This document shows positions 27,494-46,077 of a stretch of DNA of 64,000 bases, one piece after another; position 1 is the first letter of the stretch; every line of letters starts with the position of its first letter. Origin of the DNA: a phage; assembly GCA_024571205.1 (NCBI GenBank), contig GCA_024571205.1_4523.1, one strand, 5' to 3'. The position numbers were made by a program, and so were the translations under genes. Under the pieces are notes generated by a model that was not told the DNA's origin, did not search any database, and saw nothing but the letters and a program-made list of their open reading frames with translations.

Positions 27494-28429
27494 ATGTACA
27501 ATATCAAATGCTTGTCCCAAGAAGAACAGTTAGAAGCTTACGGCCTGGTTGAATCAGGCAAATGGACCCGTCGGGAAATTGCTGATTACTTCAATATTTC
27601 CACTGACACTCTTCGTAAGATTGTTAAGAATTTTAAAGCTGAAGAGAAAGCCGCTGAATTTGAAGACGAAGAACAAGTCCAAGAAAATGATGAACCTATT
27701 ATTGGCGGACATCGTCCAGAAATCGTATGGAATGCATCATCTAAATTTATTTCAATCATTGAAGGACGCGTAGCATACAATGCGACCCCATCAAGTCATG
27801 CAAATTTTGAAGAAATTAAAGCTAATTTGGTCGCAGGAAACCTTAGTAAAGCTGTCGAACTTATTAACATCAAGAAAGCTATTACTAAGTTTGTTGACGG
27901 TAATGTTACTATTGAAGGTGGTAGTTTATTTTATCAAGGTATAGAAATTCGTTCAGGACTGGTTAATCGTATTATTGATTCTATGGAAAAAGGCGAAGAC
28001 TTTAAATTCTATCTGCCGTTCCTTGAAAACCTGTTAGAAAACCCAAGCGAAAAAGCTGTACAACGTTTATTCGACTTCTTGGTTGCAAATGATATTGAAA
28101 TCACCGAAGACGGGTATTTCTATGCGTGGAAAGTAGTTCGTAAAGACTATTTAGATTGTTATAGCGGTACATTTGATAACTCCCCAGGTAAAGTTGTTTC
28201 AATGCCTCGTACTCGAGTTAACGACGATGATACTCAAACCTGTTCTCGCGGTCTCCACGTTTGTGCTAAATCTTATATTCGCCACTTTGGTTCAAGCTCA
28301 GATAAAGTTGTTAAGGTTAAAGTTCATCCACGCGATGTTGTATCCATCCCGGTTGACTACGGTGATGCTAAGATGCGTACTTGTCGTTATGAAGTAATTT
28401 CAGACGTTACTGAATTATTTGCAGAATAA
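27494..28429 (+). CDS. rIIB: rIIB protein
   Basis: 311 aa; MYNIKCL..., C-terminal PRTRVNDDDTQTCSRGLHVC matches recalled T4 rIIB. Confidence 0.9.
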   Translation: MYNIKCLSQEEQLEAYGLVESGKWTRREIADYFNISTDTLRKIVKNFKAEEKAAEFEDEEQVQENDEPIIGGHRPEIVWNASSKFISIIEGRVAYNATPSSHANFEEIKANLVAGNLSKAVELINIKKAITKFVDGNVTIEGGSLFYQGIEIRSGLVNRIIDSMEKGEDFKFYLPFLENLLENPSEKAVQRLFDFLVANDIEITEDGYFYAWKVVRKDYLDCYSGTFDNSPGKVVSMPRTRVNDDDTQTCSRGLHVCAKSYIRHFGSSSDKVVKVKVHPRDVVSIPVDYGDAKMRTCRYEVISDVTELFAE

Positions 28430-28434
28430 TAATT

Positions 28435-28457
28435 GGGGACTTCGGTCCCCTTTTTTC
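28435..28457 (+). terminator. intrinsic terminator (UUCG tetraloop)
   Basis: GGGGACttcgGTCCCC followed by TTTTTT. Confidence 0.8.
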
Positions 28458-28470
28458 TTTAGGGGTAATT

Positions 28471-28758
28471 ATGATTCATCCATTTGACGTATCAGAATCC
28501 AAAATTGCTAATCTTCGTGGTCATCATAAGTGTAAATCAGTTTATTGTGCTAAATTGGTAAAACATCCTGGTGATGCACACTACGGCTGGTTAGAATGCG
28601 ACGAAGTTGTTATTGAAATCCCACAGGTAGATGCTAACTATCTTGAAGAAGGAGACCGCATTTATTTTGGCGAACTACACATCAGAGGTATCTATGGTAA
28701 AGACGAACTTGGGACTGTTGAGACTGAAGAATCTTCCGACATTTATCCTGTCGAATGA
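28471..28758 (+). CDS. hypothetical protein, 95 aa
   Basis: ORF with RBS AGGGGTAA. Confidence 0.55.
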   Translation: MIHPFDVSESKIANLRGHHKCKSVYCAKLVKHPGDAHYGWLECDEVVIEIPQVDANYLEEGDRIYFGELHIRGIYGKDELGTVETEESSDIYPVE

Positions 28759-28774
28759 GTTTTTGACTAGTGAA

Positions 28775-29251
28775 ATGAAAGTGAAGATTGCTGACACCGC
28801 TCGGTATTCCCTGAGCCAAAATCCAGACCAAAACAAAGAAGATGTAGTTCGACGGTGTAAGGTTGCAGTTTTTGCAGAGTATGTAGTAGCAAATTGGCTA
28901 GACGGATATGTTAATAAAGGTAATGAAGACGTAGAAGACCCGTACACATATGCATGGGACGTGTTAGCTCATCCTAAATACTGCGGGTTGCGTGTCGAAG
29001 TCAAGACGCACCAGATAGATTCTAAATGGATTTCTGTTACCACAGGATACAGTGGTGATTATCCGGGTGGCAACGGAATCAACATAGGGCCCTTCCTTAA
29101 TCATCGAGTCGCTGACTGTATTATTATATTGAATGTCAAAGAAACCTCACCTGACGTCTTCTCTTATTCTATAAAGTTCGTGGGAGACCATGAAGACCTA
29201 AAGAAAATCGTCCGCAAGAGCAACTACAACGGGTGGTATCTTCATCTTTAA
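28775..29251 (+). CDS. hypothetical protein, about 158 aa (denB region)
   Basis: Start trimmed to ATG 28775, because the track N-extension overlaps the upstream ORF. Confidence 0.5.
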   Translation: MKVKIADTARYSLSQNPDQNKEDVVRRCKVAVFAEYVVANWLDGYVNKGNEDVEDPYTYAWDVLAHPKYCGLRVEVKTHQIDSKWISVTTGYSGDYPGGNGINIGPFLNHRVADCIIILNVKETSPDVFSYSIKFVGDHEDLKKIVRKSNYNGWYLHL

Positions 29252-29263
29252 TTTCATAAAAGT

Positions 29264-29293
29264 GTTTACAACTAAGTAGGACTATGATACAGT
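29264..29293 (+). promoter_or_regulatory. T4-early-type promoter with inverted repeat
   Basis: GTTTAC 29264; taggacta / tagtccta arms flank the -10 region. Confidence 0.5.
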
Positions 29294-29319
29294 AGTCCTA
29301 TCTAAAAGAGGATAACATC

Positions 29320-29583
29320 ATGAAATTTAAATTTTTCTACGCAAAACATAAAGTAACAGGCGAATTTGTTTCAATGTACAACACGGCAGATGACGAAGGG
29401 ATGATTTATACCCATTTAGGTCTATCTCATTGGGACTCAGACGTGCCTTATATGTCATCTGAAGCCGAAATAACTCGTTTAGTTAATGGACATATGAACG
29501 ACCATTTTGGTGTTATTCTTTCTAAAGACCTTAAAGAGGTTATCAACAAAGGATATATGGAACTCACGGAAGTTGAGATATGA
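29320..29583 (+). CDS. hypothetical protein, 87 aa
   Basis: ORF after a promoter; RBS AGAGGATAA. Confidence 0.55.
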   Translation: MKFKFFYAKHKVTGEFVSMYNTADDEGMIYTHLGLSHWDSDVPYMSSEAEITRLVNGHMNDHFGVILSKDLKEVINKGYMELTEVEI

Positions 29584-29775
29584 GCTCTAAAATGTGGATA
29601 GGAATATGGTTGCTTAGTATCCCAATGATTTGTATAATATTTTCAATTGTGTTGAGGTACTTATGAAAAATGCACTTCTTATTGTACTAAGAACATTTTG
29701 TGATACGGTTTTTTACATTGCATGTTCGTTCACTGGAACATGGTTGGCTTTAACATATTTTAATGTAATTTAATT

Positions 29776-29805
29776 GTTTACAACACAGTAGGATTATGGT
29801 ATAGT
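29776..29805 (+). promoter_or_regulatory. T4-early-type promoter with inverted repeat
   Basis: GTTTAC 29776, 18-nt spacer, tatagt 29800-29805. Confidence 0.5.
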
Positions 29806-29834
29806 AGTCCTACTTAAACATGAGGAATACAAAA

Positions 29835-30035
29835 ATGGCTAAGCTTTTTAAAGATGTTGAAATTGGTGAAAAATTTGTCCTGAATAATGGACAGCAGCTT
29901 ATTCGTGTAGCTTCTATAGCTGGACAAACTCATAACTGCATCGCCCCAACGTGTTGGACCCGATTCTTTATCGAGGATGACACTGAATGTTTAACTGTTG
30001 AAGAGCTTTTTGAACGTTCTGATATGGCCGAATAA
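29835..30035 (+). CDS. hypothetical protein, 66 aa
   Basis: Start trimmed to ATG 29835 after RBS GAGGAATA. Confidence 0.55.
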   Translation: MAKLFKDVEIGEKFVLNNGQQLIRVASIAGQTHNCIAPTCWTRFFIEDDTECLTVEELFERSDMAE

Positions 30036-30037
30036 AA

Positions 30038-30067
30038 TTGTACAAACTCTTGAGAGCAGAGTATAAT
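30038..30067 (+). promoter_or_regulatory. T4-early-type promoter (variant -35) with inverted repeat
   Basis: ttgtac, 18-nt spacer, tataat 30062-30067; arms gagagca / tgctctc. Confidence 0.5.
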
Positions 30068-30111
30068 GCTCTCATGGATTACAAAAACATTAATCAATTG
30101 AGGAAATTAGC

Positions 30112-30558
30112 ATGTCCAAATATTTAACTCGTAAAGACCTTCTGGCAGTTGGCGGTGAAGTTGTTGCAGTAGTTCGTAATGGCGAATACGGTTCTGAAGT
30201 TTCTAAAGAGTTTCGTTCTCGTGAAGGTTTTTACTTCTTTGTTAAAGGTTCATCTGACTGGCGACAAGTAGCAGCACGATTCTTTGTAGGACGTCAACGT
30301 TCTAAACAAGGGTTGGATGCAATTCTTTCTCACATTCGTCAAGGCCGTTCGCAACTAGCCCGTACCATGGGCACTAATAATATTGAATATGACGTAATCT
30401 TTGTTTCAGCCAAGAACATGAAACCCCTGACTACTGGTTATGGTAAAGGTCAATTGGCTCTGGCATTCACTCGCAACCATACATCAGAATATCAAACACT
30501 CACTGAAATGAACCGTCTTCTGGCAGATAATTTCAAATTTATTCTGCAGAGTTACTAA
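30112..30558 (+). CDS. ndd: Ndd nucleoid disruption protein
   Basis: 148 aa; [31 protein letters not shown] and C-terminal [12 protein letters not shown] match recalled T4 Ndd. Confidence 0.75.
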
Positions 30559-30565
30559 TTTATAC

Positions 30566-30597
30566 AGGCCTATTAAGTTAGGCCTTTAATTTATTTG
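30566..30597 (+). terminator. possible terminator hairpin
   Basis: AGGCCT-attaagtt-AGGCCT followed by ttaatttattt. Confidence 0.4.
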
Positions 30598-30610
30598 TGA
30601 GGTAATTAAA

Positions 30611-30757
30611 ATGGTATCATGGATTATTGCATTGTTGTGTTGGTCGTTTTTATTCGTTAACACTTTAGTTACAGGCGAAACAACGGTATTTCAACAGGCC
30701 GTATCACAAGGTACCTTAGCGGTCTTAGCTCTTTTTAACGTGTTAAAAGGCGAGTAA
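30611..30757 (+). CDS. small hydrophobic peptide, 48 aa
   Basis: RBS GAGGTAA; hydrophobic WIIALLCWSFLFV; below the ORF-track cutoff. Confidence 0.4.
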   Translation: MVSWIIALLCWSFLFVNTLVTGETTVFQQAVSQGTLAVLALFNVLKGE

Positions 30758-30897
30758 TGATTAAGAAAATCTTAGCAGGAGCCTTCGGGCTCTTGTTGTT
30801 GCTTACGGTTCTGTACTACGGTGTGATGTTTGGACTAATCCAAGTAGTGCTTTTCATTTCAGATGTTATAATGGATATTCGTTCATTAATATGGTGA
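30757..30897 (+). CDS. small hydrophobic peptide, 46 aa
   Basis: TAATG overlap; LAGAFGLLLLLTVLYYGVMFGL. Confidence 0.4.
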   Translation: MIKKILAGAFGLLLLLTVLYYGVMFGLIQVVLFISDVIMDIRSLIW

Positions 30898-30901
30898 AAA
30901 T

Positions 30902-32227
30902 ATGCAATTGAATTCTCGTAATCTAAAAAGTATTATTGATAACGAAGCCTTAGCATATGCGATGTACACCGTTGAAAACCGTGCAATCCCAAACATGATT
31001 GATGGATTTAAGCCGGTTCAACGTTTTGTGGTCCATCGTGCGTTAGATTTGGCTCGTGGTAATAAAGAAAAATTTCATAAACTTGCGTCAATTGCAGGCG
31101 GTGTTGCAGATTTAGGTTATCACCATGGTGAATCTTCTGCACAAGATGCAGGTGCATTGATGGCTAACACATGGAACAACAACTATCCACTGTTAGATGG
31201 CCAAGGCAACTTTGGTTCTAGAACAGTCCAAAAAGCTGCAGCATCTCGTTATATTTTTGCTCGTGTAAGTAAAAATTTCTATAACGTATATAAAGATACT
31301 GAATATGCTCCAGCTCATGAAGATAAAGAACACGTTCCACCAAAATTCTATCTTCCTATTATTCCGACAGTTCTTTTGAATGGTGTATCTGGTATTGCAA
31401 CCGGTTACGCAACAAATATTCTGCCTCATAGTTTTAAATCGGTAAAAAAGGCTGTATTACAAGCTCTTCAAGGTAAAAATGTCACTAAGCCAAAAGTTGA
31501 ATTCCCGGAATTCCATGGTGAAGTACATGAAGTTGATGGGCGTTATGAGATTCACGGAACATATAAGTTCACATCTCGTACTCAAATGCAGATAACTGAA
31601 ATCCCATATAAATTCGACCGTGAAACGTATGTGAGTAAGGTTCTTGACCCGTTGGAAGACAAAGGTCTAATCTCATGGGAAGATGATTGTGGTGAACACG
31701 GCTTTGGGTTTAAGGTGAAGTTCCGTAAAGAGTACTCGCTTCCAGATGACGAAGAGCTACGTCATGAAAAAATCATGAAAGATTTTAGTCTCATCGAACG
31801 TCGTTCACAAAACATCACAGTGATTAATGAAAAGGGTAAATTAGCGGTCTACGATAATGTAGTAGACTTAATCAAAGATTTTGTTGAAGTCCGTAAGACT
31901 TACGTTCAGAAACGTATTGACAACAAAATCATTGAATCTGAAAAAGCATTTAAACTGGCTTTTGCTAAGGCACGCTTCATCAAAAAAGTTATCAGTGGCG
32001 AAATCGTGATTCAGGGCAAGACTCGTAAAGCTTTGACTGAAGAGCTAGCACAAATCGAAATGTACAAAGAACATGTCGATAAACTGGTGGGTCTTAACAT
32101 CTTCCATATCACTTCCGACGAAGCACGTAAACTAGCAGAAGAAGCTAAAGCTAAGAAAGAAGAAAATGAGTATTGGAAGTCTACTGATGTTGTGACAGAG
32201 TACACTAAAGACTTGGAGGCACTTTGA
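30902..32227 (+). CDS. 52: DNA topoisomerase II medium subunit gp52 (GyrA-like)
   Basis: 441 aa; N-terminal MQLNSRNLKSIIDNEALAYAMYT..; catalytic Tyr region. Confidence 0.9.
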   Translation: MQLNSRNLKSIIDNEALAYAMYTVENRAIPNMIDGFKPVQRFVVHRALDLARGNKEKFHKLASIAGGVADLGYHHGESSAQDAGALMANTWNNNYPLLDGQGNFGSRTVQKAAASRYIFARVSKNFYNVYKDTEYAPAHEDKEHVPPKFYLPIIPTVLLNGVSGIATGYATNILPHSFKSVKKAVLQALQGKNVTKPKVEFPEFHGEVHEVDGRYEIHGTYKFTSRTQMQITEIPYKFDRETYVSKVLDPLEDKGLISWEDDCGEHGFGFKVKFRKEYSLPDDEELRHEKIMKDFSLIERRSQNITVINEKGKLAVYDNVVDLIKDFVEVRKTYVQKRIDNKIIESEKAFKLAFAKARFIKKVISGEIVIQGKTRKALTEELAQIEMYKEHVDKLVGLNIFHITSDEARKLAEEAKAKKEENEYWKSTDVVTEYTKDLEAL

Positions 32228-32303
32228 GTGCCCTAGCCTTAGGATTTCTCGGTGCAATAGCTGCACTAGTGATTTGGCTGTATTGGTTGGACAAACATGA
32301 TTA

Positions 32304-32324
32304 GGGAGCTTCGGCTCCCTTTTG
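32304..32324 (+). terminator. intrinsic terminator (UUCG tetraloop)
   Basis: GGGAGCttcgGCTCCC followed by TTTTgtg. Confidence 0.6.
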
Positions 32325-32345
32325 TGCATTTTTTCTCACAAAACA

Positions 32346-32374
32346 GTTTACATGTGCTTCAAACATGATATTAT
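32346..32374 (+). promoter_or_regulatory. T4-early-type promoter
   Basis: GTTTAC 32346, 17-nt spacer, tattat 32369-32374; conserved leader atagacctatcaa. Confidence 0.6.
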
Positions 32375-32413
32375 AGACCTATCAAAACAAAACAGCCAAA
32401 TTGGAGAAATAAA

Positions 32414-32629
32414 ATGTCTAAAATGAAATTAACCCAAAACACAACTACTCGTTTCGGTAAAGTTAAACCTGGTATGAATGCTCTCCGTAAAGCACTTGTT
32501 GAAGAATTAAATTTCTTAGAAGTTGAAATCAATTCTTTAGTGGTTCGCGGTTCAAATGGACATCATTTAGAAAAGCTTCGTTCTAAAAAGGCAAAACTTA
32601 TTAGCCTTATTAAAGAAATGAGTTTGTAA
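32414..32629 (+). CDS. hypothetical protein, 71 aa
   Basis: RBS TGGAGAAATAA; follows a promoter. Confidence 0.55.
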   Translation: MSKMKLTQNTTTRFGKVKPGMNALRKALVEELNFLEVEINSLVVRGSNGHHLEKLRSKKAKLISLIKEMSL

Positions 32630-32666
32630 ATTTTACCAGGGCTTTTGAAAAAGAGCCCAAAATAAA

Positions 32667-32695
32667 GTTTACTTTTGCTTCAAACATGATATTAT
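32667..32695 (+). promoter_or_regulatory. T4-early-type promoter
   Basis: GTTTAC 32667, 17-nt spacer, tattat 32690-32695; leader nearly identical to 32346 promoter. Confidence 0.6.
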
Positions 32696-32731
32696 AGACC
32701 TATCAAACAAATACTAATTTGGAGAAATAAA

Positions 32732-33364
32732 ATGTCTAAAGTTACTTACATCATCAAAGCTTCTGAAAACGCTCTGAATGAAAAAACTGCTGCAATAATG
32801 GTTTATATCATTAAGAACAACTTCACCACTGCTGCCAATGTCCGTGAAGCTCTGAAAGCGGAATACAATGCATCGGTTGTTAACTCTAACATTGGTGTAT
32901 TGATTAAGAAAGGTTTAGTCGAAAAATCCGGTGATGGACTTGTGGCAACCGGCGAAGCAATGGATATTATCCAAAAAGCTGCAGACCTCTTTGCCCAAGA
33001 AAATGCTCCAGAACTTCTTCAGAAACGTAACACCAGAAAAGCACGTGGAGTTACTCCTGAAATGCATGAATTAGCAAACTTTGTTTTTGAAAATATTAAA
33101 GATAAAGTTGAAGTTAAAGAAATCGGTGAAAACCGTAGTAACTTAGAAGTTCGATTCGCTAAACGAGTTCTAGGCATTCGCCAAATTGAAATTCGACGAG
33201 ATGGCGCTCTTAGAATCTTTGCATACAACATGTCAGAAACTGAATCAAAGCTGTTTACTTCTCTTGAAAATGATGTTAAGATTAAGATCGGTGGTAAATA
33301 TACTTACATTGACTTCCCTAATGTGTCTAAAGAAATCATTACCCTTGTAACTAACGTACTGTGA
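32732..33364 (+). CDS. motA: MotA middle-transcription activator
   Basis: 210 aa; MSKVTYIIKAS..SNIGVLIKKGLVEKSGDGL matches recalled T4 MotA. Confidence 0.85.
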   Translation: MSKVTYIIKASENALNEKTAAIMVYIIKNNFTTAANVREALKAEYNASVVNSNIGVLIKKGLVEKSGDGLVATGEAMDIIQKAADLFAQENAPELLQKRNTRKARGVTPEMHELANFVFENIKDKVEVKEIGENRSNLEVRFAKRVLGIRQIEIRRDGALRIFAYNMSETESKLFTSLENDVKIKIGGKYTYIDFPNVSKEIITLVTNVL

Positions 33365-33374
33365 GGAATACATA

Positions 33375-33704
33375 ATGAATAAGCTGAATATTATTAACGA
33401 ACTTCGTAAATGTGCAGAACCTACTCAGGAAGGATGGGATATTTGGTACCACGGGGCTTATTTAGGGACAATTGTAAAGATTAAAGCAGGCCAATATACG
33501 GTTATTCGTGAAAATAATGACGCGCCATTTGGCCTTCGTAAAAACTACATGGCAGCGATCAGTTCATTTGTTGATGCAGCTTACGAAATCTATAAAGAAG
33601 ATTATAAAGAATATCAGCAGTCACAACCGGTTATTCGTTCGATTGGTGTAAATAAACAAGCACAAAAATCTATTTGGCAACGTATTAAGGAATGGTTTAA
33701 ATGA
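33375..33704 (+). CDS. hypothetical protein, 109 aa
   Basis: ORF between motA and asiA. Confidence 0.55.
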
Positions 33705-34162
33705 AAACTTTTAAAGAACGTTTAGCTCTGTTAGATAAAGCTTTGTCGCGTGAGACTCCGGAAAGTCTGGCTGCTAAATTAGCTTCTTACGGTGGTGAAT
33801 ATACAGAACAAAATGTTTTAGACGAAGTTCCTGAAATCTGTTGGCAGACTCTGTATTGGGATGAAAACCAAAAGTATCAACGACGAATTGTCTGCGCAGC
33901 CAACCGTTTTAAATTAAAAGATGGACGAACTCTTATTATTCCAGGTGCTCGTCATTATTCTAAAGATATGGCAGAAGTTTTAGATGTAGTTAAACCTCAA
34001 TTAGTTACTCAACAAGTTTGTGATGATGACCAAGGGTTTATTGACCAATATAGTAATTATTGGACACGTGAAGAAGCAATGATTATTGCAACTTACGCTG
34101 GACAAGTACGTATTGAACGTGGTGGTAATGAAAAAGAACTTTACTCTGAGGACCTTTACTAA
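33701..34162 (+). CDS. hypothetical protein, 153 aa
   Basis: ATGA overlap with upstream gene. Confidence 0.6.
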
Positions 34163-34443
34163 TGAATCTTAAACAACTCCAGATTGATGCTATTGAAGCC
34201 CACATTAATCATATCAAACGCCTGAATGTTATGATGGAAGAAAATTATGGTATGTATGCTAATCAGCCTGGTTGGGATGCTTTAGATCATCCTTATTTGG
34301 TTAATTTATGTAAAGGTGATACGTTAGCAATTATTCGTGATGGGTTAAAACCTTTCTTGCGCGACATGTATATTAAAATGAACGAAGAAATTATTAGCTC
34401 GTTGCAATATCAATTAAGGAAATTAGATGATGAGAATAATTGA
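34162..34443 (+). CDS. hypothetical protein, 93 aa
   Basis: TAATG overlap; in the arn region of T4. Confidence 0.55.
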   Translation: MNLKQLQIDAIEAHINHIKRLNVMMEENYGMYANQPGWDALDHPYLVNLCKGDTLAIIRDGLKPFLRDMYIKMNEEIISSLQYQLRKLDDENN

Positions 34444-34654
34444 TTCTAAAGCAGATTATTTTAATTCTGTTAATGATAAGAATAAAGCTTTAATTCGCCA
34501 CTTTATTACTGAGATGGGTTATACTGACTCTAAAGATTTGAAAGAGCACATTATCGAATGTTCTGTGGCTAAAAAGTTTTCTTTCACAGACAAATGTTTA
34601 AATGAGGTTATAAATCATTATGAACAATCTTGTAGCAAAACACGATTTCAATAA
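34427..34654 (+). CDS. hypothetical protein, 75 aa
   Basis: Overlapping start; weak support. Confidence 0.45.
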   Translation: MMRIIDSKADYFNSVNDKNKALIRHFITEMGYTDSKDLKEHIIECSVAKKFSFTDKCLNEVINHYEQSCSKTRFQ

Positions 34655-34728
34655 GGCTTCTGTCCATAAGGACAAGAAGAAATCAGAACTTCAATCTAAA
34701 CGCAAACAAAAACATAAGGGTAAAGACT

Positions 34729-35028
34729 ATGCTTACTAAAATCAAAGAAAATCCTGCCACTGAACTTGTTATTCGATGTGAAGAACTTGCAGAGCTTTAT
34801 CAGGTTAACCGAGAAGTGTGTCGTAGTGTTATCGTAGATATGGAAGATGAAGTCTGTTCTCGTATTCCTTTTAGTGTCGATTTCAACCATATGAAGCCTG
34901 GTGAAATCACTATCGTCTTTGGTTCTGACTATACTGAAGAACGGGCTCTTAATGTCCTAGAATATGAAATGTCGTTCTTTGACATACAGGACTACATTGA
35001 TAGTTATAAGGAACAATATGAGTCATAA
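34729..35028 (+). CDS. hypothetical protein, 99 aa
   Basis: RBS AAGGGTAAAG. Confidence 0.55.
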   Translation: MLTKIKENPATELVIRCEELAELYQVNREVCRSVIVDMEDEVCSRIPFSVDFNHMKPGEITIVFGSDYTEERALNVLEYEMSFFDIQDYIDSYKEQYES

Positions 35029-35179
35029 TCTTCAGAACGTAGTAGAGGCCGAACGTGAGCGTGAGGCTTTAATCTATGATGAACTATTGGCCTCGTTCTT
35101 AGCCTTACACTCGTACGAACAGGAAGACTACATTGATTACGTTAAAAGCGTAGAAAAAGCCGTTTACAATCAACACTGA
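35018..35179 (+). CDS. hypothetical protein, 53 aa
   Basis: Start trimmed to ATG 35018 after RBS AAGGAACA; overlaps the upstream stop by 11 nt. Confidence 0.45.
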   Translation: MSHNLQNVVEAEREREALIYDELLASFLALHSYEQEDYIDYVKSVEKAVYNQH

Positions 35180-35225
35180 TAATGGTACTATACTCCTAAC
35201 AATTAAGTGGAATGAATAAAACGTT

Positions 35226-35498
35226 ATGAATAAAGACATTGAAATCGTACGTGAAATTATTACTATTGCTTCTATTTTGATTAAATTCTCTAGGGAAGAT
35301 ATTGTTGAAGACCGAGCAAATTTCATCGGATTCTTGAATGAGATTGGAATTAAAAAAGATGGTCGGCAGCTAAATCAGAATTCGTTCAGAAAACTAATTA
35401 CAAATTTAACTGCCGAAGAAAAGAAAACACTGATTAGTGAATTCAATGAAGGTTTTGAAAATATTTATCGCCATTTGACGATGTATTCTAACAACTAA
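35226..35498 (+). CDS. asiA: AsiA anti-sigma-70 factor
   Basis: 90 aa; MNKDIEIVREIITIASILIKFSREDIV matches recalled T4 AsiA. Confidence 0.88.
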   Translation: MNKDIEIVREIITIASILIKFSREDIVEDRANFIGFLNEIGIKKDGRQLNQNSFRKLITNLTAEEKKTLISEFNEGFENIYRHLTMYSNN

Positions 35499-36158
35499 TT
35501 ATTTAGCCCGCCCTAATATCCTTGCTGCTTGGTTGCATATTGCAGCCAAGCGTTCTTCATTTAGCACATCCGATCCCTTATACCAATACATAGAAACAGT
35601 TCCCGCATATATGTTATCCAAATTGAAGTAAGGACAACTATACATATACGCCAGTTCCGGAGTTTTTGATTTGGTAGGTAAGAAAGCAAAATCTGTTTTA
35701 GAAGTAAAGTGAAGTCCACTTAAATGGACCGAATATTCTGCTGTCGTTTTATCAACAGGAAATCCTCCCATAGATTTTTCAGTTACTGTGCTAGGTAACT
35801 TACCTTCATACGCAATAAGGTCGACGAAATAATTTAGATTTTTAGGTCTGAAAGAATACACCGAACTAAAATCCGCCCTTGATGTGACGTGGACTATTTG
35901 TAGTTGTTCTAAAGCCGCAGATTCAAATCGTGTATTTCTTTCTTTTTGAATTACTTCTGTGTAAGTATCATATTTCGACCTCACGTAATAATCCATAAAA
36001 ATATTCCCTTTGTACCATATTAGTGCCATTAGGAACAAAAGAACTACAACAGCAACTCTTGAAATAAGAATATTTCCAGAGGCGTTATCTTTGAAAATGC
36101 GGTCTAGCAACCCAAATAAAATATCACTAGGCGAAAATGATACTTTTGGTGCTGCCAT
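35499..36158 (-). CDS. t: holin T
   Basis: Start set at MAAPKVSFSPSD (second ATG, preceded by GGAGG); matches recalled T4 holin. Confidence 0.85.
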   Translation of the reverse strand: MAAPKVSFSPSDILFGLLDRIFKDNASGNILISRVAVVVLLFLMALIWYKGNIFMDYYVRSKYDTYTEVIQKERNTRFESAALEQLQIVHVTSRADFSSVYSFRPKNLNYFVDLIAYEGKLPSTVTEKSMGGFPVDKTTAEYSVHLSGLHFTSKTDFAFLPTKSKTPELAYMYSCPYFNLDNIYAGTVSMYWYKGSDVLNEERLAAICNQAARILGRAK

Positions 36159-36177
36159 ATTACCTCCCATTTATCAA

Positions 36178-36185
36178 TATTTATA
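36178..36185 (-). promoter_or_regulatory. late promoter TATAAATA for t
   Basis: Minus strand reads caatTATAAATAttgataaatGGGAGGtaatATG. Confidence 0.55.
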
Positions 36186-36203
36186 ATTGAGAGGTATTAT
36201 CGT

Positions 36204-36983
36204 TTAAATCCAGGAGCCGTAGATTGTGCCTGTAGCACCCCATGACGGTGAACTTCCGAATACTGCTCTGCCAGGAGCACCACCGCCAGATCTAGATAAG
36301 TGATTACCCCATCCATCTCCGCCACGACCTCCAGCATCACCGCCATTGCCTCCGCCGAATTGGGAAGTGTAACCGGCCCCGCCCGGGGCGTCATAACTAG
36401 CATTACCACCCGGCCAATTAACGCCACCTCCGCCGATGCCAAATGGTCTACCACCACCGCCACCTGCTGTAGCATTTGGCGCCCAGCTATTCTGTAATGA
36501 CACTGCACCACCTCCGCCACCGCCTGATGCAATAACACCATAGTTCCAAATACGAAGTCTTCCGCCGATATCATTTTGGATTACATCGCCACCATTAGTG
36601 CCTGGGTTTCCGTTTACAGTACCGTTACCACCTCGTCCCCACATATGAACTCCACCATGAATATTCAAAGTAACATATTCATTTGGCGTATCGCCATACA
36701 TAAAGAATAATGGAACATCTTTACTATATGATACCAAATTTCCGGTGATATTAAACACTATAGGTGCACTACCTGCCTCAAAACATCTATCTCGGAACCA
36801 TTGACCGTTGAAGTTATGGTCTGCTCCAAGTGTGTGAATTATTTCTCTTGAACGGCCCGCGAATTGGGACATCCATGAAGGGTTTCCTAAACGAAGTTCC
36901 CTTGAAGCAGCCGTCATCCATCTTTGTCCCGTTTCAGCAACGGCTGAAGTCCCAATCCAACCAGGGATTCCTACTACTGCCAT
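36204..36983 (-). CDS. 38: gp38 receptor-recognising adhesin of the long tail fibre (T2/T6 type, glycine-rich motifs)
   Basis: 259 aa with several poly-Gly segments ([34 protein letters not shown]); position between 37 and t. Confidence 0.8.
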
Positions 36984-36993
36984 ATAAACCTCC

Positions 36994-37009
36994 AGGGCCC
37001 GAAGGCCCT
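36994..37009. promoter_or_regulatory. GC hairpin between genes 37 and 38
   Basis: AGGGCC-cgaa-GGCCCT; a T-run follows on the + strand, the gp38 RBS GGAGG follows on the - strand. Confidence 0.5.
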
Positions 37010-37013
37010 TTTA

Positions 37014-40000
37014 TTATTTTATCAATGATTTAATTAATGCTTTCAATTCGGTAATTTCAGATTTCAATTCCTTGATTTCATCTGTATGCTCGTTTATTGC
37101 AGCTGTATTTAAACCAATAATACCGTTATAGTTCAAACGAAGCAGTCCGGTCTCTTTATCTTCAGAAACAAGTTCAGGTAATACTTCTTGAACTTCCTGA
37201 GCAATTAAACCTGCGGACGGTTTAACTTCGTCTGTAACAGAGTTTTTAAGCAGATAAGTATAACCGCCCAATAGTTTAGATTTCTCTTGAGCGTTCTTAA
37301 TAAGCTTAATTTCCGACTTACAACGAATATCAGAACGAATATAAACGTCGTTAACATCAATGTTATCACGAACATACATACCTGCATTACAGTGGAAGTT
37401 AACATCACCGAATGTCTGAGCTAAACCAGGTCTAAAACTAAACACACCTTGGCCGTTTGCATATGCGTTGAAAATACCATCGTTTTCCCAAAGCAAACCG
37501 GTATCGTTATCTCCAAGTACAATACACGGCCCGCCCCATGCAGGGTCACCACCACCAGCTGATACTCTACTGCTCTTAAGTAAGCTTGGAGCATAAAAAG
37601 TACCGTTATGATGGAATTCATATACAGCTTGTGGGTCGTAACCGTTTTCCTGATTACCTACACGAATAATACCTTGTGCCCATGTATTAGTAATGCGTCG
37701 CATACCAAAATCTACACCAGATATGTATCCTTCATTAGTAATACCGGATTTTCCTTTAATAATAGGATAATAACTATCATTACCAACATTACCAAAATCT
37801 ACAAATACCGGTGCTTCTTGATTCCATTGATTTCCCCAACCACCGCCCTGGTGTGCGGCCCATTGTGTACCGTTTATATGGAGGCGGTCTCTATTAAAAT
37901 TAAATGTTCCTTGGCCTTGAGGAGAAAGTGATATTTCTCCGTTATTTGTTATATATACACCGCCTTGTGTAACATAACTGTAAAAACCTAGACCATTGTC
38001 GGCACCGCCTTTACCAATATACCAATTATTGGCCCCGGCCGTATCAGAACGAATAAATGATGAATCACTGGTCAAAGGAGGATTAAGAACTATTCCAGCG
38101 GCATCTTTATTAATCCAAAGAGTGCCGGTCATCGTGTCGCCTTCTTTCGAAACACGAGTCGCAATAGCATCGCGAATATTTGTAGTATCACCGGCAGAAG
38201 TAAACGTTTTCCAGATATCAGACCAGATATTACCATTGCGAGCAATAGTAGCTTCACCGCCGCCAACAGAAACGTTATCTGGGAAGTTAACAGTACCGTC
38301 TTGATTAAAACGAGACGTATGGCCTTGTGATCCATCTTCTTTCAGATGATGAATAACGAATGTACCCGAATTAATTTCAGTACCTAAAGACCAAACGGCT
38401 TTACCATTTAAAAACTTCTGTTTAACAATAGGATAATATTTGCTTACAGCATCATCATCAATTTCCTGGAAAATAGGAGCCGCTTGGGCATATTGAATAT
38501 CATATCCACCTGCGCCAGCGCCATGTCCAACAAATTTAATATATCCGTTTGCTGCGAACGTATTGTAACTTGATTGTAAATCTGGAATAGTAACTTTACC
38601 AGTATCTAAAGCCAAACTAAACGGGCGAAGTGGGCCGATATCACCATTTTTGCCTTCGCCATAAGCAGTTGGAATAATATGAAGACTTCCTTCTGAACGT
38701 CTAAAAATGGCTCCATAATCTGCGTTCCAAATACGAAGAGCATTCACTGCTCCAGATGAAATTTCACCTGTTGTGTGAACTCCTCTATCTCCAGCAGTAA
38801 CACCAGATGATTCAAATGAACCATTAACGTTCATTTCTACTTCGCCAGTAGTAAGTCTTTGAATATAGCTCATCCAGCTAGTTGCATCAGAAATTTCCAT
38901 AACGTTTTTACGGATACCTCCGCTTGGATCAACAAACGTATTACCCCAAACTTTAATATCCATATTATCAACCGAGCTGTATCCTGTTGTGTTGCCTCTA
39001 AACATTAGTGTAGAAGAATTATTTCTACCATCTATATTTACAGAACCGCCAATAACGTCAATATTACCAGGAGTAACTAACAAACCGCCGTGAGTATTAA
39101 TGTTTGTAGTACCCTTGCCGCGGAAATAATGATGATAGTTACCGCCTTGATAATATCCCAAAAGAGTCTGACCATCTCCAAACGCGTTATTATCGTGATA
39201 TGTCACAACAGTAGCAAGAGCATAGTTTTCAGTTGGAGGAGTAGTTAAATCGGTTCCATTAGTAGAATATCCAGCTACAAATTTTCTTAGGCTAGTTGTT
39301 TCGCTAGGATTAAATAAAAACGTTTTTGTTCCATTATTAACGCTGAAATAATATCCGTCTTGATGCCATTTAAATCCAGTATCATTATCTCCTAAAGCAA
39401 TGCTAGATGGTCCTAATATTGAATAATCTTTATTACCTGGTGTTAAACCGATAGAAATTGAGTGACTTGATTTAATTCCGCCGCTCCAGGTAAATGACCA
39501 AAGATAAGCATCTAATCCATCTCCACTATACCAAGTTATTCCATCATTATCTTTAACTTCATGGAAAATACCAGAACCAACGGCATTACGCATGACACGA
39601 AGATGATTAATAGCAGTAGTGCTTTCAGACAATGGAACATTGTCTGCCATCGAATAGATGTCATAATCACCCGTAGATTTATTATTAGTAATGACTTTGT
39701 TGGTTAGAATTTGTGGAGACGAAATAGATTTCCATGCTGATACTTCAGGTGAAGTAAATAGTCCACTGCCTGAAAATGCATAAGTGCTTTCGCTACCAGC
39801 GGCATAGTCTTGAACCCTGATATTAAGTACTTGTGTAGTTAAACCATCATTAGCCGGGGCATAAATGATTCCGCGTTCGCGACTATTGTTATCGAAAAAA
39901 CGAACATGTGCTGTGCCTGAACTTTTTGTAATAAGTTCACCGCCTTCAGTCATAATCTGCCCGGCGGCAATAATATCGCGAGTTACTCGAGCAATACCAG

Positions 40001-40265
40001 TTAAATTAAAATTACCCGTCTGTGTGAAGACGCCATTTAAAGTATAATCACCAGTTTGGTTGTAATTGCCAGTATGAATAACATTCCCGTCAATACTACC
40101 ACCTTTAGCAAAACCTAGATCAATAATATTTCCTTGGTCATCTTTAGTAAAAAGTACACGGTCTTTTAAGTTTATAGCCAATTCACCTTCGGCTAATACT
40201 GAAGCGGCAGGACGTGCTCCTGCAGTTTTGCTTCTTTTAAATTGTATTTGTTTTAAAGTAGCCAT
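37014..40265 (-). CDS. 37: gp37 long tail fibre distal subunit
   Basis: 1083 aa; C-terminal coiled-coil/intramolecular chaperone-like segment; gene order 34-35-36-37-38. Confidence 0.85.
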   Translation of the reverse strand: MATLKQIQFKRSKTAGARPAASVLAEGELAINLKDRVLFTKDDQGNIIDLGFAKGGSIDGNVIHTGNYNQTGDYTLNGVFTQTGNFNLTGIARVTRDIIAAGQIMTEGGELITKSSGTAHVRFFDNNSRERGIIYAPANDGLTTQVLNIRVQDYAAGSESTYAFSGSGLFTSPEVSAWKSISSPQILTNKVITNNKSTGDYDIYSMADNVPLSESTTAINHLRVMRNAVGSGIFHEVKDNDGITWYSGDGLDAYLWSFTWSGGIKSSHSISIGLTPGNKDYSILGPSSIALGDNDTGFKWHQDGYYFSVNNGTKTFLFNPSETTSLRKFVAGYSTNGTDLTTPPTENYALATVVTYHDNNAFGDGQTLLGYYQGGNYHHYFRGKGTTNINTHGGLLVTPGNIDVIGGSVNIDGRNNSSTLMFRGNTTGYSSVDNMDIKVWGNTFVDPSGGIRKNVMEISDATSWMSYIQRLTTGEVEMNVNGSFESSGVTAGDRGVHTTGEISSGAVNALRIWNADYGAIFRRSEGSLHIIPTAYGEGKNGDIGPLRPFSLALDTGKVTIPDLQSSYNTFAANGYIKFVGHGAGAGGYDIQYAQAAPIFQEIDDDAVSKYYPIVKQKFLNGKAVWSLGTEINSGTFVIHHLKEDGSQGHTSRFNQDGTVNFPDNVSVGGGEATIARNGNIWSDIWKTFTSAGDTTNIRDAIATRVSKEGDTMTGTLWINKDAAGIVLNPPLTSDSSFIRSDTAGANNWYIGKGGADNGLGFYSYVTQGGVYITNNGEISLSPQGQGTFNFNRDRLHINGTQWAAHQGGGWGNQWNQEAPVFVDFGNVGNDSYYPIIKGKSGITNEGYISGVDFGMRRITNTWAQGIIRVGNQENGYDPQAVYEFHHNGTFYAPSLLKSSRVSAGGGDPAWGGPCIVLGDNDTGLLWENDGIFNAYANGQGVFSFRPGLAQTFGDVNFHCNAGMYVRDNIDVNDVYIRSDIRCKSEIKLIKNAQEKSKLLGGYTYLLKNSVTDEVKPSAGLIAQEVQEVLPELVSEDKETGLLRLNYNGIIGLNTAAINEHTDEIKELKSEITELKALIKSLIK

Positions 40266-40273
40266 AAGTCCTC

Positions 40274-40930
40274 TTAATAATAGCCGAAATCTTGAACAGA
40301 ATCCTTAATAACAATTTGGTCAAATCGTGGAACATGCGAGGGTTGAGATGCAGGATTCTGTGAGAAAAAGTTTGGGGCGGTTAGCGCGCCGGTCATCGTA
40401 TCTCCTGAACGGAGTACACGACTGTTTGCATTAGCATTAACTGTATTTATTTGACTATCAACATAATCTTTGCGAGTAAGGTCGTAATTATTTAAAGGTG
40501 CTAACGTTGTGGCTCTGAATTGAGATGCTTCAATAACGCCTTTAGAACTTATATTACCGGTGCGAGTATCAATTACAGCGGTTCTTTCACCTGTACCTTG
40601 AGATGATTTAAACCCAATACCATACCACGAAACAATATCCATGTTTGTTTGGTCGAATGTCGCGGCGTCACCACCACCAGAAAAAATACCATTCGTTTGG
40701 TCATCTGCTGTTTTGACTGCAACACCTTCATTAAAGATTACCTTTTTGAGATATGCCCCACCGTTTGCTTTAGATACGAAATCGTTATCAGCAGCCTGTG
40801 GTTTATTGTATTCAGTATATAATTTAAATGTTTTGTATAAGATGTCATCGCCAGCTGGCATTAAAGGAAAATTGCCTTGATGCCATATGACGGAACCACC
40901 AATTGTACTTCCGGCTTTTAAATCGGCCAT
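40274..40930 (-). CDS. 36: gp36 long tail fibre distal connector
   Basis: 218 aa, upstream of 37. Confidence 0.8.
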   Translation of the reverse strand: MADLKAGSTIGGSVIWHQGNFPLMPAGDDILYKTFKLYTEYNKPQAADNDFVSKANGGAYLKKVIFNEGVAVKTADDQTNGIFSGGGDAATFDQTNMDIVSWYGIGFKSSQGTGERTAVIDTRTGNISSKGVIEASQFRATTLAPLNNYDLTRKDYVDSQINTVNANANSRVLRSGDTMTGALTAPNFFSQNPASQPSHVPRFDQIVIKDSVQDFGYY

Positions 40931-40956
40931 TTCGTGTCTCCTTATTAATATTAAAG

Positions 40957-40964
40957 TATTTATA
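40957..40964 (-). promoter_or_regulatory. late promoter TATAAATA for gene 36
   Basis: Minus strand TATAAATA about 28 nt upstream of the gene 36 ATG. Confidence 0.55.
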
Positions 40965-40972
40965 CGCGAAAA

Positions 40973-40988
40973 GGAGACCGAAGTCTCC
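40973..40988 (-). terminator. terminator hairpin after gene 35 (UUCG tetraloop; functions on both strands)
   Basis: GGAGACttcgGTCTCC followed by TTTT on the - strand and tttatt on the + strand. Confidence 0.55.
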
Positions 40989-40989
40989 T

Positions 40990-42114
40990 TTATTCTGTAT
41001 ACTCTTTAAACTCTTGTCCAAATACCTTACCTGTATCAACAGATAACTGAGTAGGCAAATCCATTATATCATTGTCGGTTAATGATTCATCAATGTAATT
41101 AACGCGAATACCGTTTAGGCCGAACTCTGCTGGTTTTGCTATACTTCCGTTGCATGATACTTCGGTGAAAATGACATTTCGTAAACCACCTTGACCGACT
41201 GGGGCCGTACGATAACAATATACTGTAAAGCCGTCAGCTTCGGCTGGTATTTCGACATACTCTTCATATAACTTCCATTCACCAGCAGTTCCATCAAAGT
41301 TTATATCTTTAGATGATATAGGAGAGCTAGATGGAGTCTTAAAGAAACGAATTGAAAGTCTTGTGGTTCCTTCCTCTAATAATTCTTCATCAGCCATTAA
41401 TTGAAATTTCAGATAAAGAAAATCTGTAGGCTTTAATCTATAGTTTGCTAGAGGAGTAACAAGGGATGACGTAGGCATCCTTTTTATTTCATTGTTAGTT
41501 CCTCCAACAGGAGATAAAAACGTTTCCAATGCTTCGTATGTACGACTAGGGTAGCCGGTAGCACCTATATCAGCAATAGAGTCATAAACTATATCCAATG
41601 GGGTCCCATAATCTGCAATTGTTTTCTTATTACTGTATTTTATATGTTCTAACGCAATAGAATTTTTACCAGACACATAAAACGCCGAATATGAAATATC
41701 AACAAGATTAGCAACTTCAATCGAAGGTATAACTGAACTCCCTGCGGCTTTAAACCATGCAATTATTTCGGGTGGTAAATTAAATTTGTTATTAGAAATA
41801 AATGCGAAAATGAAATTATTTGCATACGTATTAACAAACGAAATAAATGCAGCTGAAGTGGCATTATTTGTTGGTGCAAAATTGTATAATTTACTATCAA
41901 CTATAGTCCCATTTTCCGGATTTATCACCCTAACATTTAGCCCAATACCAAAAGACTGCAGTCCTAAAGGCTCGTTTTGGAACAAAATATATGGATTAGA
42001 TGTTGAAAGCGGGCATGAACCCGCTATACTTAACTTAAATCTAACCGAATTGCTTTCCGATAAAAATGGCGTTTGGACGTATCCTTGTCCAAACCTTGCC
42101 ATAAATTTTTCCAT
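40990..42114 (-). CDS. 35: gp35 long tail fibre hinge connector
   Basis: 374 aa; between 34 and 36. Confidence 0.8.
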   Translation of the reverse strand: MEKFMARFGQGYVQTPFLSESNSVRFKLSIAGSCPLSTSNPYILFQNEPLGLQSFGIGLNVRVINPENGTIVDSKLYNFAPTNNATSAAFISFVNTYANNFIFAFISNNKFNLPPEIIAWFKAAGSSVIPSIEVANLVDISYSAFYVSGKNSIALEHIKYSNKKTIADYGTPLDIVYDSIADIGATGYPSRTYEALETFLSPVGGTNNEIKRMPTSSLVTPLANYRLKPTDFLYLKFQLMADEELLEEGTTRLSIRFFKTPSSSPISSKDINFDGTAGEWKLYEEYVEIPAEADGFTVYCYRTAPVGQGGLRNVIFTEVSCNGSIAKPAEFGLNGIRVNYIDESLTDNDIMDLPTQLSVDTGKVFGQEFKEYTE

Positions 42115-42122
42115 ATAACCTC

Positions 42123-45100
42123 TTATTCAACCCATATAAATTTAACGGTTTTGTTGACCGGGTCCGGAACAATTCTCACATTTCCTAATTGTAAGAAGTC
42201 TCGAACAGTAAGGTTTCCGATTACCGCGTTATCAGATGGGATAGCACCGACATCGCTAGGTGAAGGTGGGTTGCCGCTATCAAACACCATTGCAAATGAC
42301 GTCCAAGCGTCTTTGTTTTTCTGCCAGGTACGAGTGTAGCGAATACTACCACCATTTGCACCTGTAGGATAACAAATCCAATCCTGATAAAGCGAATCTA
42401 AACTATTACCAAATTGGGTCAAAGTACCAGGATATTTAATCTCTTGGTCACGGTTACCTTGGTTATCACGAGTCCAATACCCCGGGAATTGACTATATGT
42501 TGCAGAATCATTGATATCAATAGACCAAAAACCTACAGTAGAAGCAGTTGGCTTATCAGTATAAACGGTTGTTGTTTTAACACCATTAGAAATAATTCTG
42601 TTGTTTACAGTTAATCCACCAGTAGTTATTGTTGCACCACTTGTGATTTGAACACCATTATCCAAACGAACAAGACCAGTGGCATTGTTAATCGTGATTG
42701 GACGTAAGTTATTAAATGTCCCGGTTTGGTCACCTGAGTTAGTTAATGCGATATAAGAACTGTTGCCAGCGTTATAAAGCATAACACCATAGTTACCATT
42801 AATAGCTCTGAATGCAATAGGAGAACGAGAAACAATTTCACCTGTAGCAGTAATAGACCCGGTAAATGTCGAAACACCTGTAACGTTTAAACCATTTGTA
42901 GAAACAACACCAGCAGAATAAAGCGTTCCATTAACATTGAATGATACTTTACTGTCTGCGGCACGCTGAGAATAGAAATGATAGCCGGTTGTATCGCCAG
43001 CTTCAAATACTGTATCACGTCCACCAGTGGTAACGCTATTACCCCATACTCTAACAACAAAATCCTCTTTATTACTAAGAGGTTGGGTTCCTTTGGTGAA
43101 AAAGATTTCAGAACCACTAGAGTCATTGAGAGTTAATCTACGAGTAATAGATGCCTCGGAACCAAAAGAAGCAGTGCTTGTAGATACTAAAGGGGCACTC
43201 AGGTTGGTCTGCTTAGTAAGACTTAAAGAACCATTAACAGTCTGGTCGATGTCTCGACGGATGAACTGAAGAGAATCTAGCCCATCTAACAAATTGCTAT
43301 CTACGGCTTTAGCTTTCAATGGGAGATAGTTAGCAAGCACACGGTTTAATTCATATGGTGAAATAGCATAACCGTTTTTAGCGTATATGTCCAGGTCCTG
43401 CGTATTACCTTGGGTATCGTCACCAACAAATGTAATAGAGCCAGATGAAGTTCTTACAAATCCACGTTGAGATGTTGTTGCTTCCCATGTTGCTTCAGAT
43501 TGGACGATCCATTTTAAATTCTTAGGTGATACAGCGGTATTAGCAGAAGTTCCTGTTACAGTTTCTGCCTGAGTAGCAACCTTAATTACACCTTCAGACG
43601 TTTCAGTGGACTTAGTCCCTAAAAGCTTTTTAGGAGTAATAAGAACATCATCTAAAGTTCCTGCATTAGATTCTGCCTGGGTCGCTACGCGAAGTGTACC
43701 ACGCTGTGTTTCATTTGCTTTAGAAATATCAAGAGTATAATGGTTCCATAAGGTTCCTTCTTCAATAAGTCCGGAATCAGAATTAACACTGGTACGGCCA
43801 GAAGAATCAAAATGAGTTTTAATTTTCAGTGGAGTCGAGATACGAATATCATCAGTTCCAGTATCAAATTCAACTTGCGTAGCAATTTCGGCTATGCCGG
43901 ATAATCCTTCCGTAGCTTTCCTATCATTTAACGTCTTAGGCGTTACTGCTCTAGTATAATCAGCCCCAGCGTCAGTTTCTGCTTGCGTAGCAATTTCAAT
44001 TAAACCAATACGTCCATCGGTAGAAGTTTTCTTATGCAGAGTTTCAGGAGTCACTACAGCATTAGCCCAGCCGGTTTGCGATTCACCAGCGATAACTTCA
44101 CTTTCAATAGCAAGAATTACTGCACCCTGTTGAGTAGGGGTAGCTTTATACTGGTCAAGAGCCTTTGGAGAAATAGTTAAATTATCTACGGCTTTGTTAT
44201 AAACGTTAGTCCCGGCATTACCACGAATAGTAGCAGCTGTAGTACCAGTCGTAGATGTGTATTTTACAATACCAGATAAAACTTCAGAACCTTGACGTGC
44301 ATCCAATTTCTTAGGAGTAATAATAGTAGTATCATCAGTCCCAGCGTTAGTTTCTGCTTGCGTAGCAATTTCAGCGACACCTCTACGTGTTTCTGTTGCA
44401 GTACGTTCATTTAATTTCTTAGGAGAAATAATTAAATCATCCTGGAAAGCAAAATCGGTGTTCTGATTAACTTGTGTAGTTGTTGCAATACGGGCAATAC
44501 CACGCCGAGTTTCGGTTGCCGTACGATTTGCTAATGTTTCAGGCGTAATAGCAAGTTCTTTACCCGGAGAATTTTCTAAATCAACATTAGCTTGAGCCTG
44601 AGATGCTAGAGCAATAACACCTACTCGAGCTCTAGTTACATCACTAGTTGCATCAACACGTTCTACTGTGACAACATTTTGTTGTACAACCCAATAACTA
44701 GTTAAAGTGGACGTATCTTCGATGTATGCCAATTCAAGAACTGGAACATAAGATGTATCCCCATTGAATTCCAATTCAGGTACAGAAACCCATTGTGTTT
44801 CAGGTGGATAAGAAGAACGTTTAGGAAACTGGAGCAAGTTAATATTTGTTGCTATAACATCACCGACAGCCGCTTTAATTTTTACAGTTTGCCCTTTTCT
44901 CATATAATTCAGAGAAATTTTAACTGTATCACCGTTTGAAATACTAGTAGGCAAATTAAGATTTACCGTAGAAGACGTAGCGTTGTCGGTACCAAAAATG
45001 AGAACTTCTTCATTAGGACGAAGATTTGTATCGTTTCTAATAATACGAAGTCTTGCTTTCTGGTCGCCTTCCCATACACGCCATAAACTATTGGCGGCAT

Positions 45101-45956: not shown

Positions 45957-45990
45957 GGTAGTCCTCTTATCATTATGTGTTCTATTTTAC

Positions 45991-45998
45991 TATTTATA
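45991..45998 (-). promoter_or_regulatory. late promoter TATAAATA for gene 34
   Basis: Minus strand TATAAATA about 35 nt upstream of the gene 34 ATG. Confidence 0.55.
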
Positions 45999-46005
45999 AA
46001 TGAAG

Positions 46006-46035
46006 TAAAAGTCCTGTTTACGCTTTCAAGTGAGT
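46006..46035 (+). promoter_or_regulatory. T4-early-type promoter
   Basis: GTTTAC 46006, 18-nt spacer, tactat 46030-46035; precedes rnh. Confidence 0.6.
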
Positions 46036-46077
46036 GTGTTACTATAGACACGTTGACTAACTGAACAAGAGGTTCAT

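Follow-up and report, generated by a model that had tools for sequence, protein, structure and literature searches.

Introduction

The C-terminal half of gp38, the adhesin of T2/T6-type phages, is defined by an array of five GRM and four HVS segments, and its C-terminal extremity is universally conserved (Trojet, 2011; PMC3157838). The same study described the modular evolution of the gp37–gp38 locus. Specificity has been placed in the segments between the glycine-rich motifs by several reports (Trojet, 2011; Lutz, 2025, PMC12032242; Terasaki, 2026, PMC12892980; bioRxiv 10.64898/2026.04.02.716166). Known receptors include FadL for T2 gp38, Tsx for T6 gp38, OmpC of O157 for PP01 gp38 (PDB 9V85), and Salmonella OmpC for S16 gp38 (PDB 6F45). 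The 9V85 construct, in which the receptor-binding domain of PP01 gp38 is fused to sfGFP, revealed a β-helix domain, a polyglycine-II sandwich, and five receptor loops, A–E (Terasaki, 2026).

Another group of T-even phages has been linked to OmpF. The BASEL supplementary table records OmpF dependence for Bas38, Bas46, and Bas47, and FL33 is OmpF-dependent with a weaker effect of TolC (PMC12032242). Furthermore, an RB-TnSeq preprint (10.64898/2026.07.23.740414) reported that, among outer-membrane proteins, infection of O157:H7 backgrounds by RB51, Bas38, Bas47, K20, CEV1, and RB68 is determined by ompF, and that OmpF-binding T-evens on O157:H7 also need the group 4 capsule. Bidirectional mutagenesis showed that a single HVS3 substitution in RB51/RB68 gp38, Q206L, switches the receptor from OmpF to OmpW (bioRxiv 10.64898/2026.04.02.716166).

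In this study, a gp38 gene was analyzed within a 64,000-nucleotide stretch of phage DNA (the window). At a probability of roughly 0.86, it is the gene 38 of a T-even phage, a Mosigvirus, and its product is a T2/T6-type gp38 adhesin, for which OmpF is the most likely porin.

Results

Gene 38 encodes a glycine-rich protein with alternating conserved and variable segments

Gene 38 was located at positions 36204–36983 on the minus strand as an ATG-start open reading frame of 259 codons plus stop. These coordinates and this length had been given in the first-pass annotation, which left the strand unstated, and the ORF matches them exactly. A Shine–Dalgarno sequence, GGAGG, is read at 36989–36993 (minus strand), 5 nt before the ATG. 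Glycine accounts for 64 of the 259 residues (24.7%), compared with 3–13% in the window's 24 other long ORFs, and it is unevenly distributed, rising from 11.3% in residues 1–115 to 37.6% in residues 116–240. The glycine runs comprise G6 at residues 154–159, G5 at 174–178, G4 at 184–187, and G3 at both 210–212 and 233–235, together with nine GG pairs. Because of the GGN codons of gp38, the GC content reaches 55–57% at 36200–36650, compared with 37.7% for the whole window. Three further ORFs lie in or beside this glycine-rich sequence, of 125 aa (36197–36574, minus strand), 65 aa (36300–36497, plus strand), and 58 aa (36010–36186, plus strand); they are most likely artefacts of stop-poor GGN-rich sequence rather than genes.

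The conservation of gp38 was evaluated using 22 unique sequences from reference phages and IMG/VR loci; the IMG/VR scan contributed 13 related loci, which was sufficient for a conservation profile. The N-terminal attachment domain (residues 1–42; 36858–36983, minus strand), delimited by Pfam PF21721, is predicted to dock on the tip of the gp37 trimer. It precedes a conserved body (residues 46–115; 36639–36848, minus strand), which corresponds in the 9V85 alignment to the β-helix domain of the PP01 and S16 structures and has the lowest entropy within the protein (0.38 bits). The specificity region, which was delimited from the conservation pattern, covers residues 116–240 (36264–36638, minus strand), and the alignments place a conserved C-terminal motif at residues 241–259 (36207–36263, minus strand).

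Within residues 116–240, the mean entropy was 0.40 bits for glycine columns and 1.27 bits for non-glycine columns (22 sequences; Mann–Whitney p=6.6e-9). The alternation of glycine blocks with variable segments noted in the first-pass annotation is thus real and far beyond chance. Segment boundaries were drawn by us from the conservation string, giving GRM1 116–121, GRM2 130–159, GRM3 174–187, GRM4 210–222, and GRM5 233–240, interleaved with HVS1 122–129, HVS2 160–173, HVS3 188–209, and HVS4 223–232. The C-terminal half of gp38 therefore contains the five GRM and four HVS segments of the definition of Trojet (2011). That the inter-glycine segments set specificity, as had also been proposed, is established in the literature cited above, and the conservation pattern of the 22 sequences fits it.

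gp38 belongs to the phage tail fibre adhesin family

The first-pass annotation had read gp38 as a T2/T6-type adhesin, and profile searches bore this out. The Pfam family GP38 'phage tail fibre adhesin' (PF05268) matched residues 47–259 over profile positions 1–218 of 218, with an E value of 4e-83 and 279 bits against a cutoff of 25. In addition, Gp38_N (PF21721) matched residues 1–42 over 40/40 profile positions (E=8e-21, 74 bits), and PHROG 2056, 'tail fiber protein; host specificity', was matched at E=1e-109. Among PDB entries, the best match was the PP01 gp38 receptor-binding domain in 9V85 (E=3e-73, residues 39–258), and chain D of 6F45, gp38 of Salmonella phage S16, matched residues 8–259 (E=2e-48). 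The alignment with T2 and T6 gp38 that had been proposed as a check was run: both align end to end, at 51% and 66% identity, respectively, and PP01 gp38 reaches 67.5% over the receptor-binding domain. T2 and T6 gp38 share with gp38 here the family, the length, the plan of glycine motifs and variable segments, and the position after gene 37, but their variable segments differ. PP01 and S16 gp38 likewise belong to the same family and have the same domain plan.

A single-sequence AlphaFold2 model of gp38 was unusable (mean pLDDT 31, pTM 0.17). Homology to 9V85 and 6F45 implies that gp38 would fold into a polyglycine-II sandwich whose receptor loops lie at the distal end. The N-terminal domain occurs in at least three sequence types among the relatives, and these do not track receptor type. 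The type found here accompanies a gp37 tip of the Bas38 type. The attachment domains of Bas46, FL33, and RB68 are of a type unlike that of gp38 here, and T6 combines another N-terminal type with a shorter, different gp37 tip.

Near-identical homologues of this gp38 are annotated inconsistently, as chaperone or catalyst in some records and as 'adhesin' or 'receptor-recognizing protein' in others. The label 'long tail fiber assembly chaperone/catalyst' in CAU_ECP01, Shf125875, OLB35, KMB38, SQ17, and Bp7, together with a gene slot that is the same as that of T4 gene 38, could be taken to mean that gp38 is a T4-type assembly chaperone, or 'catalyst', that is absent from the virion. However, similarity to T4 gp38 is absent, the best BLASTP hit having an E value of 2.0 over 14 aa; alignment with the T4 chaperone, which would have spoken against the adhesin reading, was thus not found. 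The two proteins also fall into different PHROGs, 2056 for gp38 here and 105 ('tail fiber assembly') for T4 gp38, the latter being matched by T4 gp38 only, and no Pfam tail-assembly-chaperone profile matched gp38. Moreover, according to the T4 RefSeq note, the 'gp38' of the T2 subfamily is the adhesin and is unrelated to T4 gp38, crystal structures of gp38 homologues show them as receptor-binding proteins of the gp37 tip (6F45, 9V85), and gp37 here has its own intramolecular chaperone. The gp38 analyzed here and T4 gp38 have in common nothing but the gene number and a location flanked by gene 37 and t; T4 gp38 has an unrelated sequence and family, is 183 aa long, is not glycine-rich, and is not in the virion. 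A T4-chaperone identity, which we regard as scarcely credible, was rejected on the BLASTP result and the separate PHROGs, and the chaperone labels on the homologues are a transfer of name by gene number from the unrelated T4 protein. gp38 is accordingly treated below as a T2/T6-type adhesin.

gp37 carries a self-chaperone domain and matches the S16 partner

Gene 38 immediately follows gene 37 and precedes the holin gene t, and its same-strand neighbours are gp34, gp35, gp36, and gp37 upstream and t downstream. Gene 37, which encodes the distal long-tail-fibre subunit of 1083 aa, occupies 37014–40265 (minus strand) as an ORF annotated as gp37 in Bas38 and CAU_ECP01. The protein ends in a C-terminal intramolecular chaperone (Peptidase_S74) domain, assigned to residues 978–1083 from Ser978 (SDIRCK; 37017–37334, minus strand), where Pfam PF13884 matched residues 978–1033 (E=1e-11). 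Furthermore, residues 909–1083 matched the portion of S16 gp37 that was crystallised in complex with gp38 (6F45; E=1.4e-30), and no T4 gp37 needle-tip structure matched gp37 in the PDB search; the tip and its chaperone domain are thus of the S16/T2 type. In the middle of gp37, the Pfam profile 'Gp34_trimer' matched residues 452–549, and the gp34 structures 4UXE and 5NXF matched residues 418–561, a module common to the proximal and distal fibre subunits.

Between the gene 37 stop codon (37014–37016) and the gene 38 Shine–Dalgarno sequence lies a hairpin, AGGGCC-UUCG-GGCCCU (36994–37009, minus strand), with a perfect stem, a C(UUCG)G tetraloop, and a folding energy of −12.3 kcal/mol, which abuts the Shine–Dalgarno sequence. 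Its plus strand resembles a terminator formed by a hairpin and a T-run, and its stability does not exceed that of shuffled versions of the 51-nt context (z=−0.66). A late-promoter-like motif, TATAAATA, upstream of gene 36 (40957–40964, minus strand) is the likely start of a g36–g37–g38 late transcript, and the motif does not occur directly upstream of gene 38. Because the window contains 7 copies of TATAAATA, no more than the 7.1 expected by chance, late-promoter assignments were made from intergenic position only. A sigma-70 promoter scan of 35300–37300 gave sites no more frequent than in shuffles.

The same motif also occurs at 36178–36185, just upstream of holin gene t. The t ORF (35499–36170, minus strand) encodes 223 aa and starts with MGGNMAAPKVSF, and t is annotated as 660 nt in Bas38 and CAU_ECP01, about 12 nt (4 codons) shorter. 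Translation of t therefore probably begins at the second ATG (MAAPKVSF..., 35499–36158).

The phage is a Mosigvirus with an adhesin cassette shared with Tequatrovirus

Gene 38 matched 371 records of the phage collection at the DNA level and 760 at the protein level. The exact genome is absent from this collection and the gp38 is present: the protein is 100% identical to PECP20 gp38 (OQ873415), and the gene is 99.9% identical in nucleotides to those of PECP20 and CAU_ECP01 (PQ572755), both isolated on O157:H7. Over positions 28000–48000, the best records were CAU_ECP01 (96.1% nucleotide identity), PECP20 (95.2%), AlbertHofmann (92.8%), and PhAPEC2 (91.6%), the last two of which are Mosigvirus. 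The GC content of the window is the same as that given for two Mosigvirus phages, Bas46 and Bas47. Since the closest records include AlbertHofmann and PhAPEC2 and the GC content agrees, the phage is a Mosigvirus. PECP20 and CAU_ECP01 share its gene order and genus-level backbone, with 95–96% nucleotide identity over 20 kb; they differ not in gp38 but in the surrounding 20 kb, which is 4–5% different, mostly in gp34 (87%) and gp35 (92%). No tRNA genes were detected in the 64-kb window by ARAGORN.

Comparison with Bas38 (AugustSocin), which like FL33 and RB68 is a Tequatrovirus, whereas the phage here is a Mosigvirus, gave a mosaic profile. Nucleotide identity was 65–78% for ndd, gp52, motA, gp36, gp35, and gp34, compared with 99.6% for asiA, 98.7% for t, and 97.4% for gene 38, whose first 135 nt are 100% identical. 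The last 375 nt of gene 37 are 99.5% identical and the remainder of that gene 88–90%. The resulting asiA–t–g38–g37 3′ end cassette spans about 35226–37388 at 97–100% identity. Because the cassette is so much closer to Bas38 than its flanks are, these comparisons indicate that gene 38, together with the gp37 tip and the neighbouring genes, was exchanged recently between Mosigvirus and Tequatrovirus, which fits the modular evolution known for this locus (Trojet, 2011).

Two side observations concern the proximal half-fibre. Most genes are 98–100% identical to those of CAU_ECP01, compared with 92.4% for gp35 and 87.1% for gp34 (40990–45956), which suggests that a second mosaic boundary may lie there. 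In gp35 (40990–42114), a marginal match to the Pfam profile ILEI (interleukin-like EMT inducer) covers residues 58–131, with 29.2 bits against a cutoff of 27, and possibly reflects a shared β-rich fold.

The receptor loops of gp38 match those of OmpF-dependent phages

Pairwise comparison placed gp38 close to adhesins of known receptor. Amino acid identity was 98.8% to Bas38, with three differences (A54E, I183L, and R220W), and 98.5% to Bas47 (AlbertHofmann), with four. Bas46 (ChristianSchoenbein) reached 95.8%, with one difference (I183L) within residues 37–259. FL33 gp38 was 93.8% identical, its 16 differences including residues 197–202, between loops C and D, and deposited RB68 gp38 was 91.8% identical overall. 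The five PP01 loops, A–E, map to gp38 residues 122–127, 163–172, 186–190, 205–209, and 223–231. All five are identical in Bas38, Bas46, Bas47, and deposited RB68, and all five differ from those of PP01 (OmpC), T6 (Tsx), AV119 (OmpA), and T2 (FadL). Furthermore, the position of the OmpF/OmpW switch, residue 206 in RB51/RB68, aligns with gp38 residue 208 in HVS3 (loop D), and the codon there, CAA (36360–36362, minus strand), encodes glutamine, the OmpF-type state. Because all five loops agree with the OmpF group and differ from the other four adhesins, and because residue 208 is Gln, OmpF is very probably the receptor of this gp38 allele; the first-pass annotation had left the receptor unnamed. 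The literature searched contained no receptor reports for PECP20 or CAU_ECP01.

The best structural match and the O157:H7 hosts of PECP20 and CAU_ECP01 would both accord with OmpC, the receptor of the O157:H7 phage PP01. The identity to PP01 is high in the conserved body only, however. Loop D reads YTSQ-F in gp38 here vs. NTGTGY in PP01, another loop differs from the PP01 sequence N-PGAG-YS, and the PP01 loop residues that differ include the OmpC cross-linkers G208, Y209, and Y230. The loops are instead identical to those of OmpF-typed phages, and O157:H7 is also infected by OmpF-binding T-evens. As the loops of PP01 and S16 gp38 all differ from those of gp38 here, a different porin is predicted, and a PP01-like OmpC receptor was rejected on the five differing loops; we consider it very unlikely.

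The comparison with RB68 raised a second alternative, that gp38 uses OmpW, or OmpF together with another porin, as reported for a laboratory stock of that phage. The receptor-binding half of gp38 is identical to that of deposited RB68 (residues 83–259), and RB68 is reported to be OmpW-specific on K-12 (10.64898/2026.04.02.716166). However, it is L206 that confers the OmpW phenotype, whereas the equivalent residue 208 is Gln here, as in the deposited RB68 record, and both RB68(L206Q) and RB51 bind OmpF. An RB68-like OmpW receptor was therefore rejected on sequence grounds, and an OmpW or dual specificity is judged to be improbable. As a separate observation, the deposited RB68 gp38 (NC_027979) has Gln206 and the preprint ascribes the OmpW specificity of the RB68 stock to Leu206; the deposited sequence and the laboratory stock thus appear to differ at the switch residue.

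With OmpF as the predicted receptor, two residues deserve attention. gp38 has I183 and R220 where Bas38 and Bas47 have L183 and W220, and since one substitution (Q206L) is enough to switch the receptor, such small differences could matter. R220 is also present in the OmpF-typed Bas46 and FL33, and I183 in deposited RB68. Given that the closest relatives come from O157:H7 and that the capsule is needed there, binding of gp38 to OmpF may not be the whole of adsorption. There is a slim chance that this allele, which combines I183 and R220 with a Mosigvirus fibre, recognises a surface component additional to or different from that of its OmpF-typed relatives, such as an O157:H7-specific OmpF loop variant or the group 4 capsule. 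The allele also lies a single nucleotide change in codon 208 away from OmpW specificity, which would make it a natural example of single-mutation porin switching.

Discussion

Family membership, architecture, genomic context, and loop identity to typed OmpF binders are covered directly by the sequence evidence, and from homology we infer how gp38 folds, that it sits at the tip of the fibre, and which receptor it binds. A mechanism of adsorption can be proposed from the structures 6F45 and 9V85 and from the genetics of Trojet (2011), with the downstream steps as published for such phages. In this model, trimerisation of gp37 would be assisted by the intramolecular chaperone domain at its own C-terminus; this domain, as in its family, would then be auto-cleaved near Ser978, removing about 106 residues and exposing the tip. 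One gp38 monomer would then cap the exposed gp37 tip through its N-terminal ~42 residues, as suggested by 6F45. The glycine-rich motifs of gp38 would pack into a rigid polyglycine-II sandwich, which would present the hypervariable loops (approximately residues 122–129, 160–173, 188–209, and 223–232) distally, where they would contact extracellular loops of a porin, most likely OmpF. Reversible binding of gp38 to OmpF would be followed by binding of the short tail fibres to the LPS core and then by tail contraction.

The gp38 described here is already known, in that its sequence matches a deposited one exactly and that the family, the structure, and the receptor specificity of the allele group have been published. 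The present analysis adds the OmpF call, the observation that the published OmpF/OmpW switch residue is the OmpF-type Gln208 in this allele, and evidence of recent cassette exchange between Mosigvirus and Tequatrovirus. The OmpF prediction points to loss of ompF or ompR and to changes in envZ as likely resistance routes, and allele typing of this kind is useful for selecting phages for cocktails that target E. coli, O157:H7 among them. In T2/T6-type phages, host range is determined mainly by gp38, and typing of its alleles predicts the receptor. For the allele analyzed here, a single A-to-T change in codon 208 (CAA to CTA) would separate the predicted OmpF binder from OmpW specificity.
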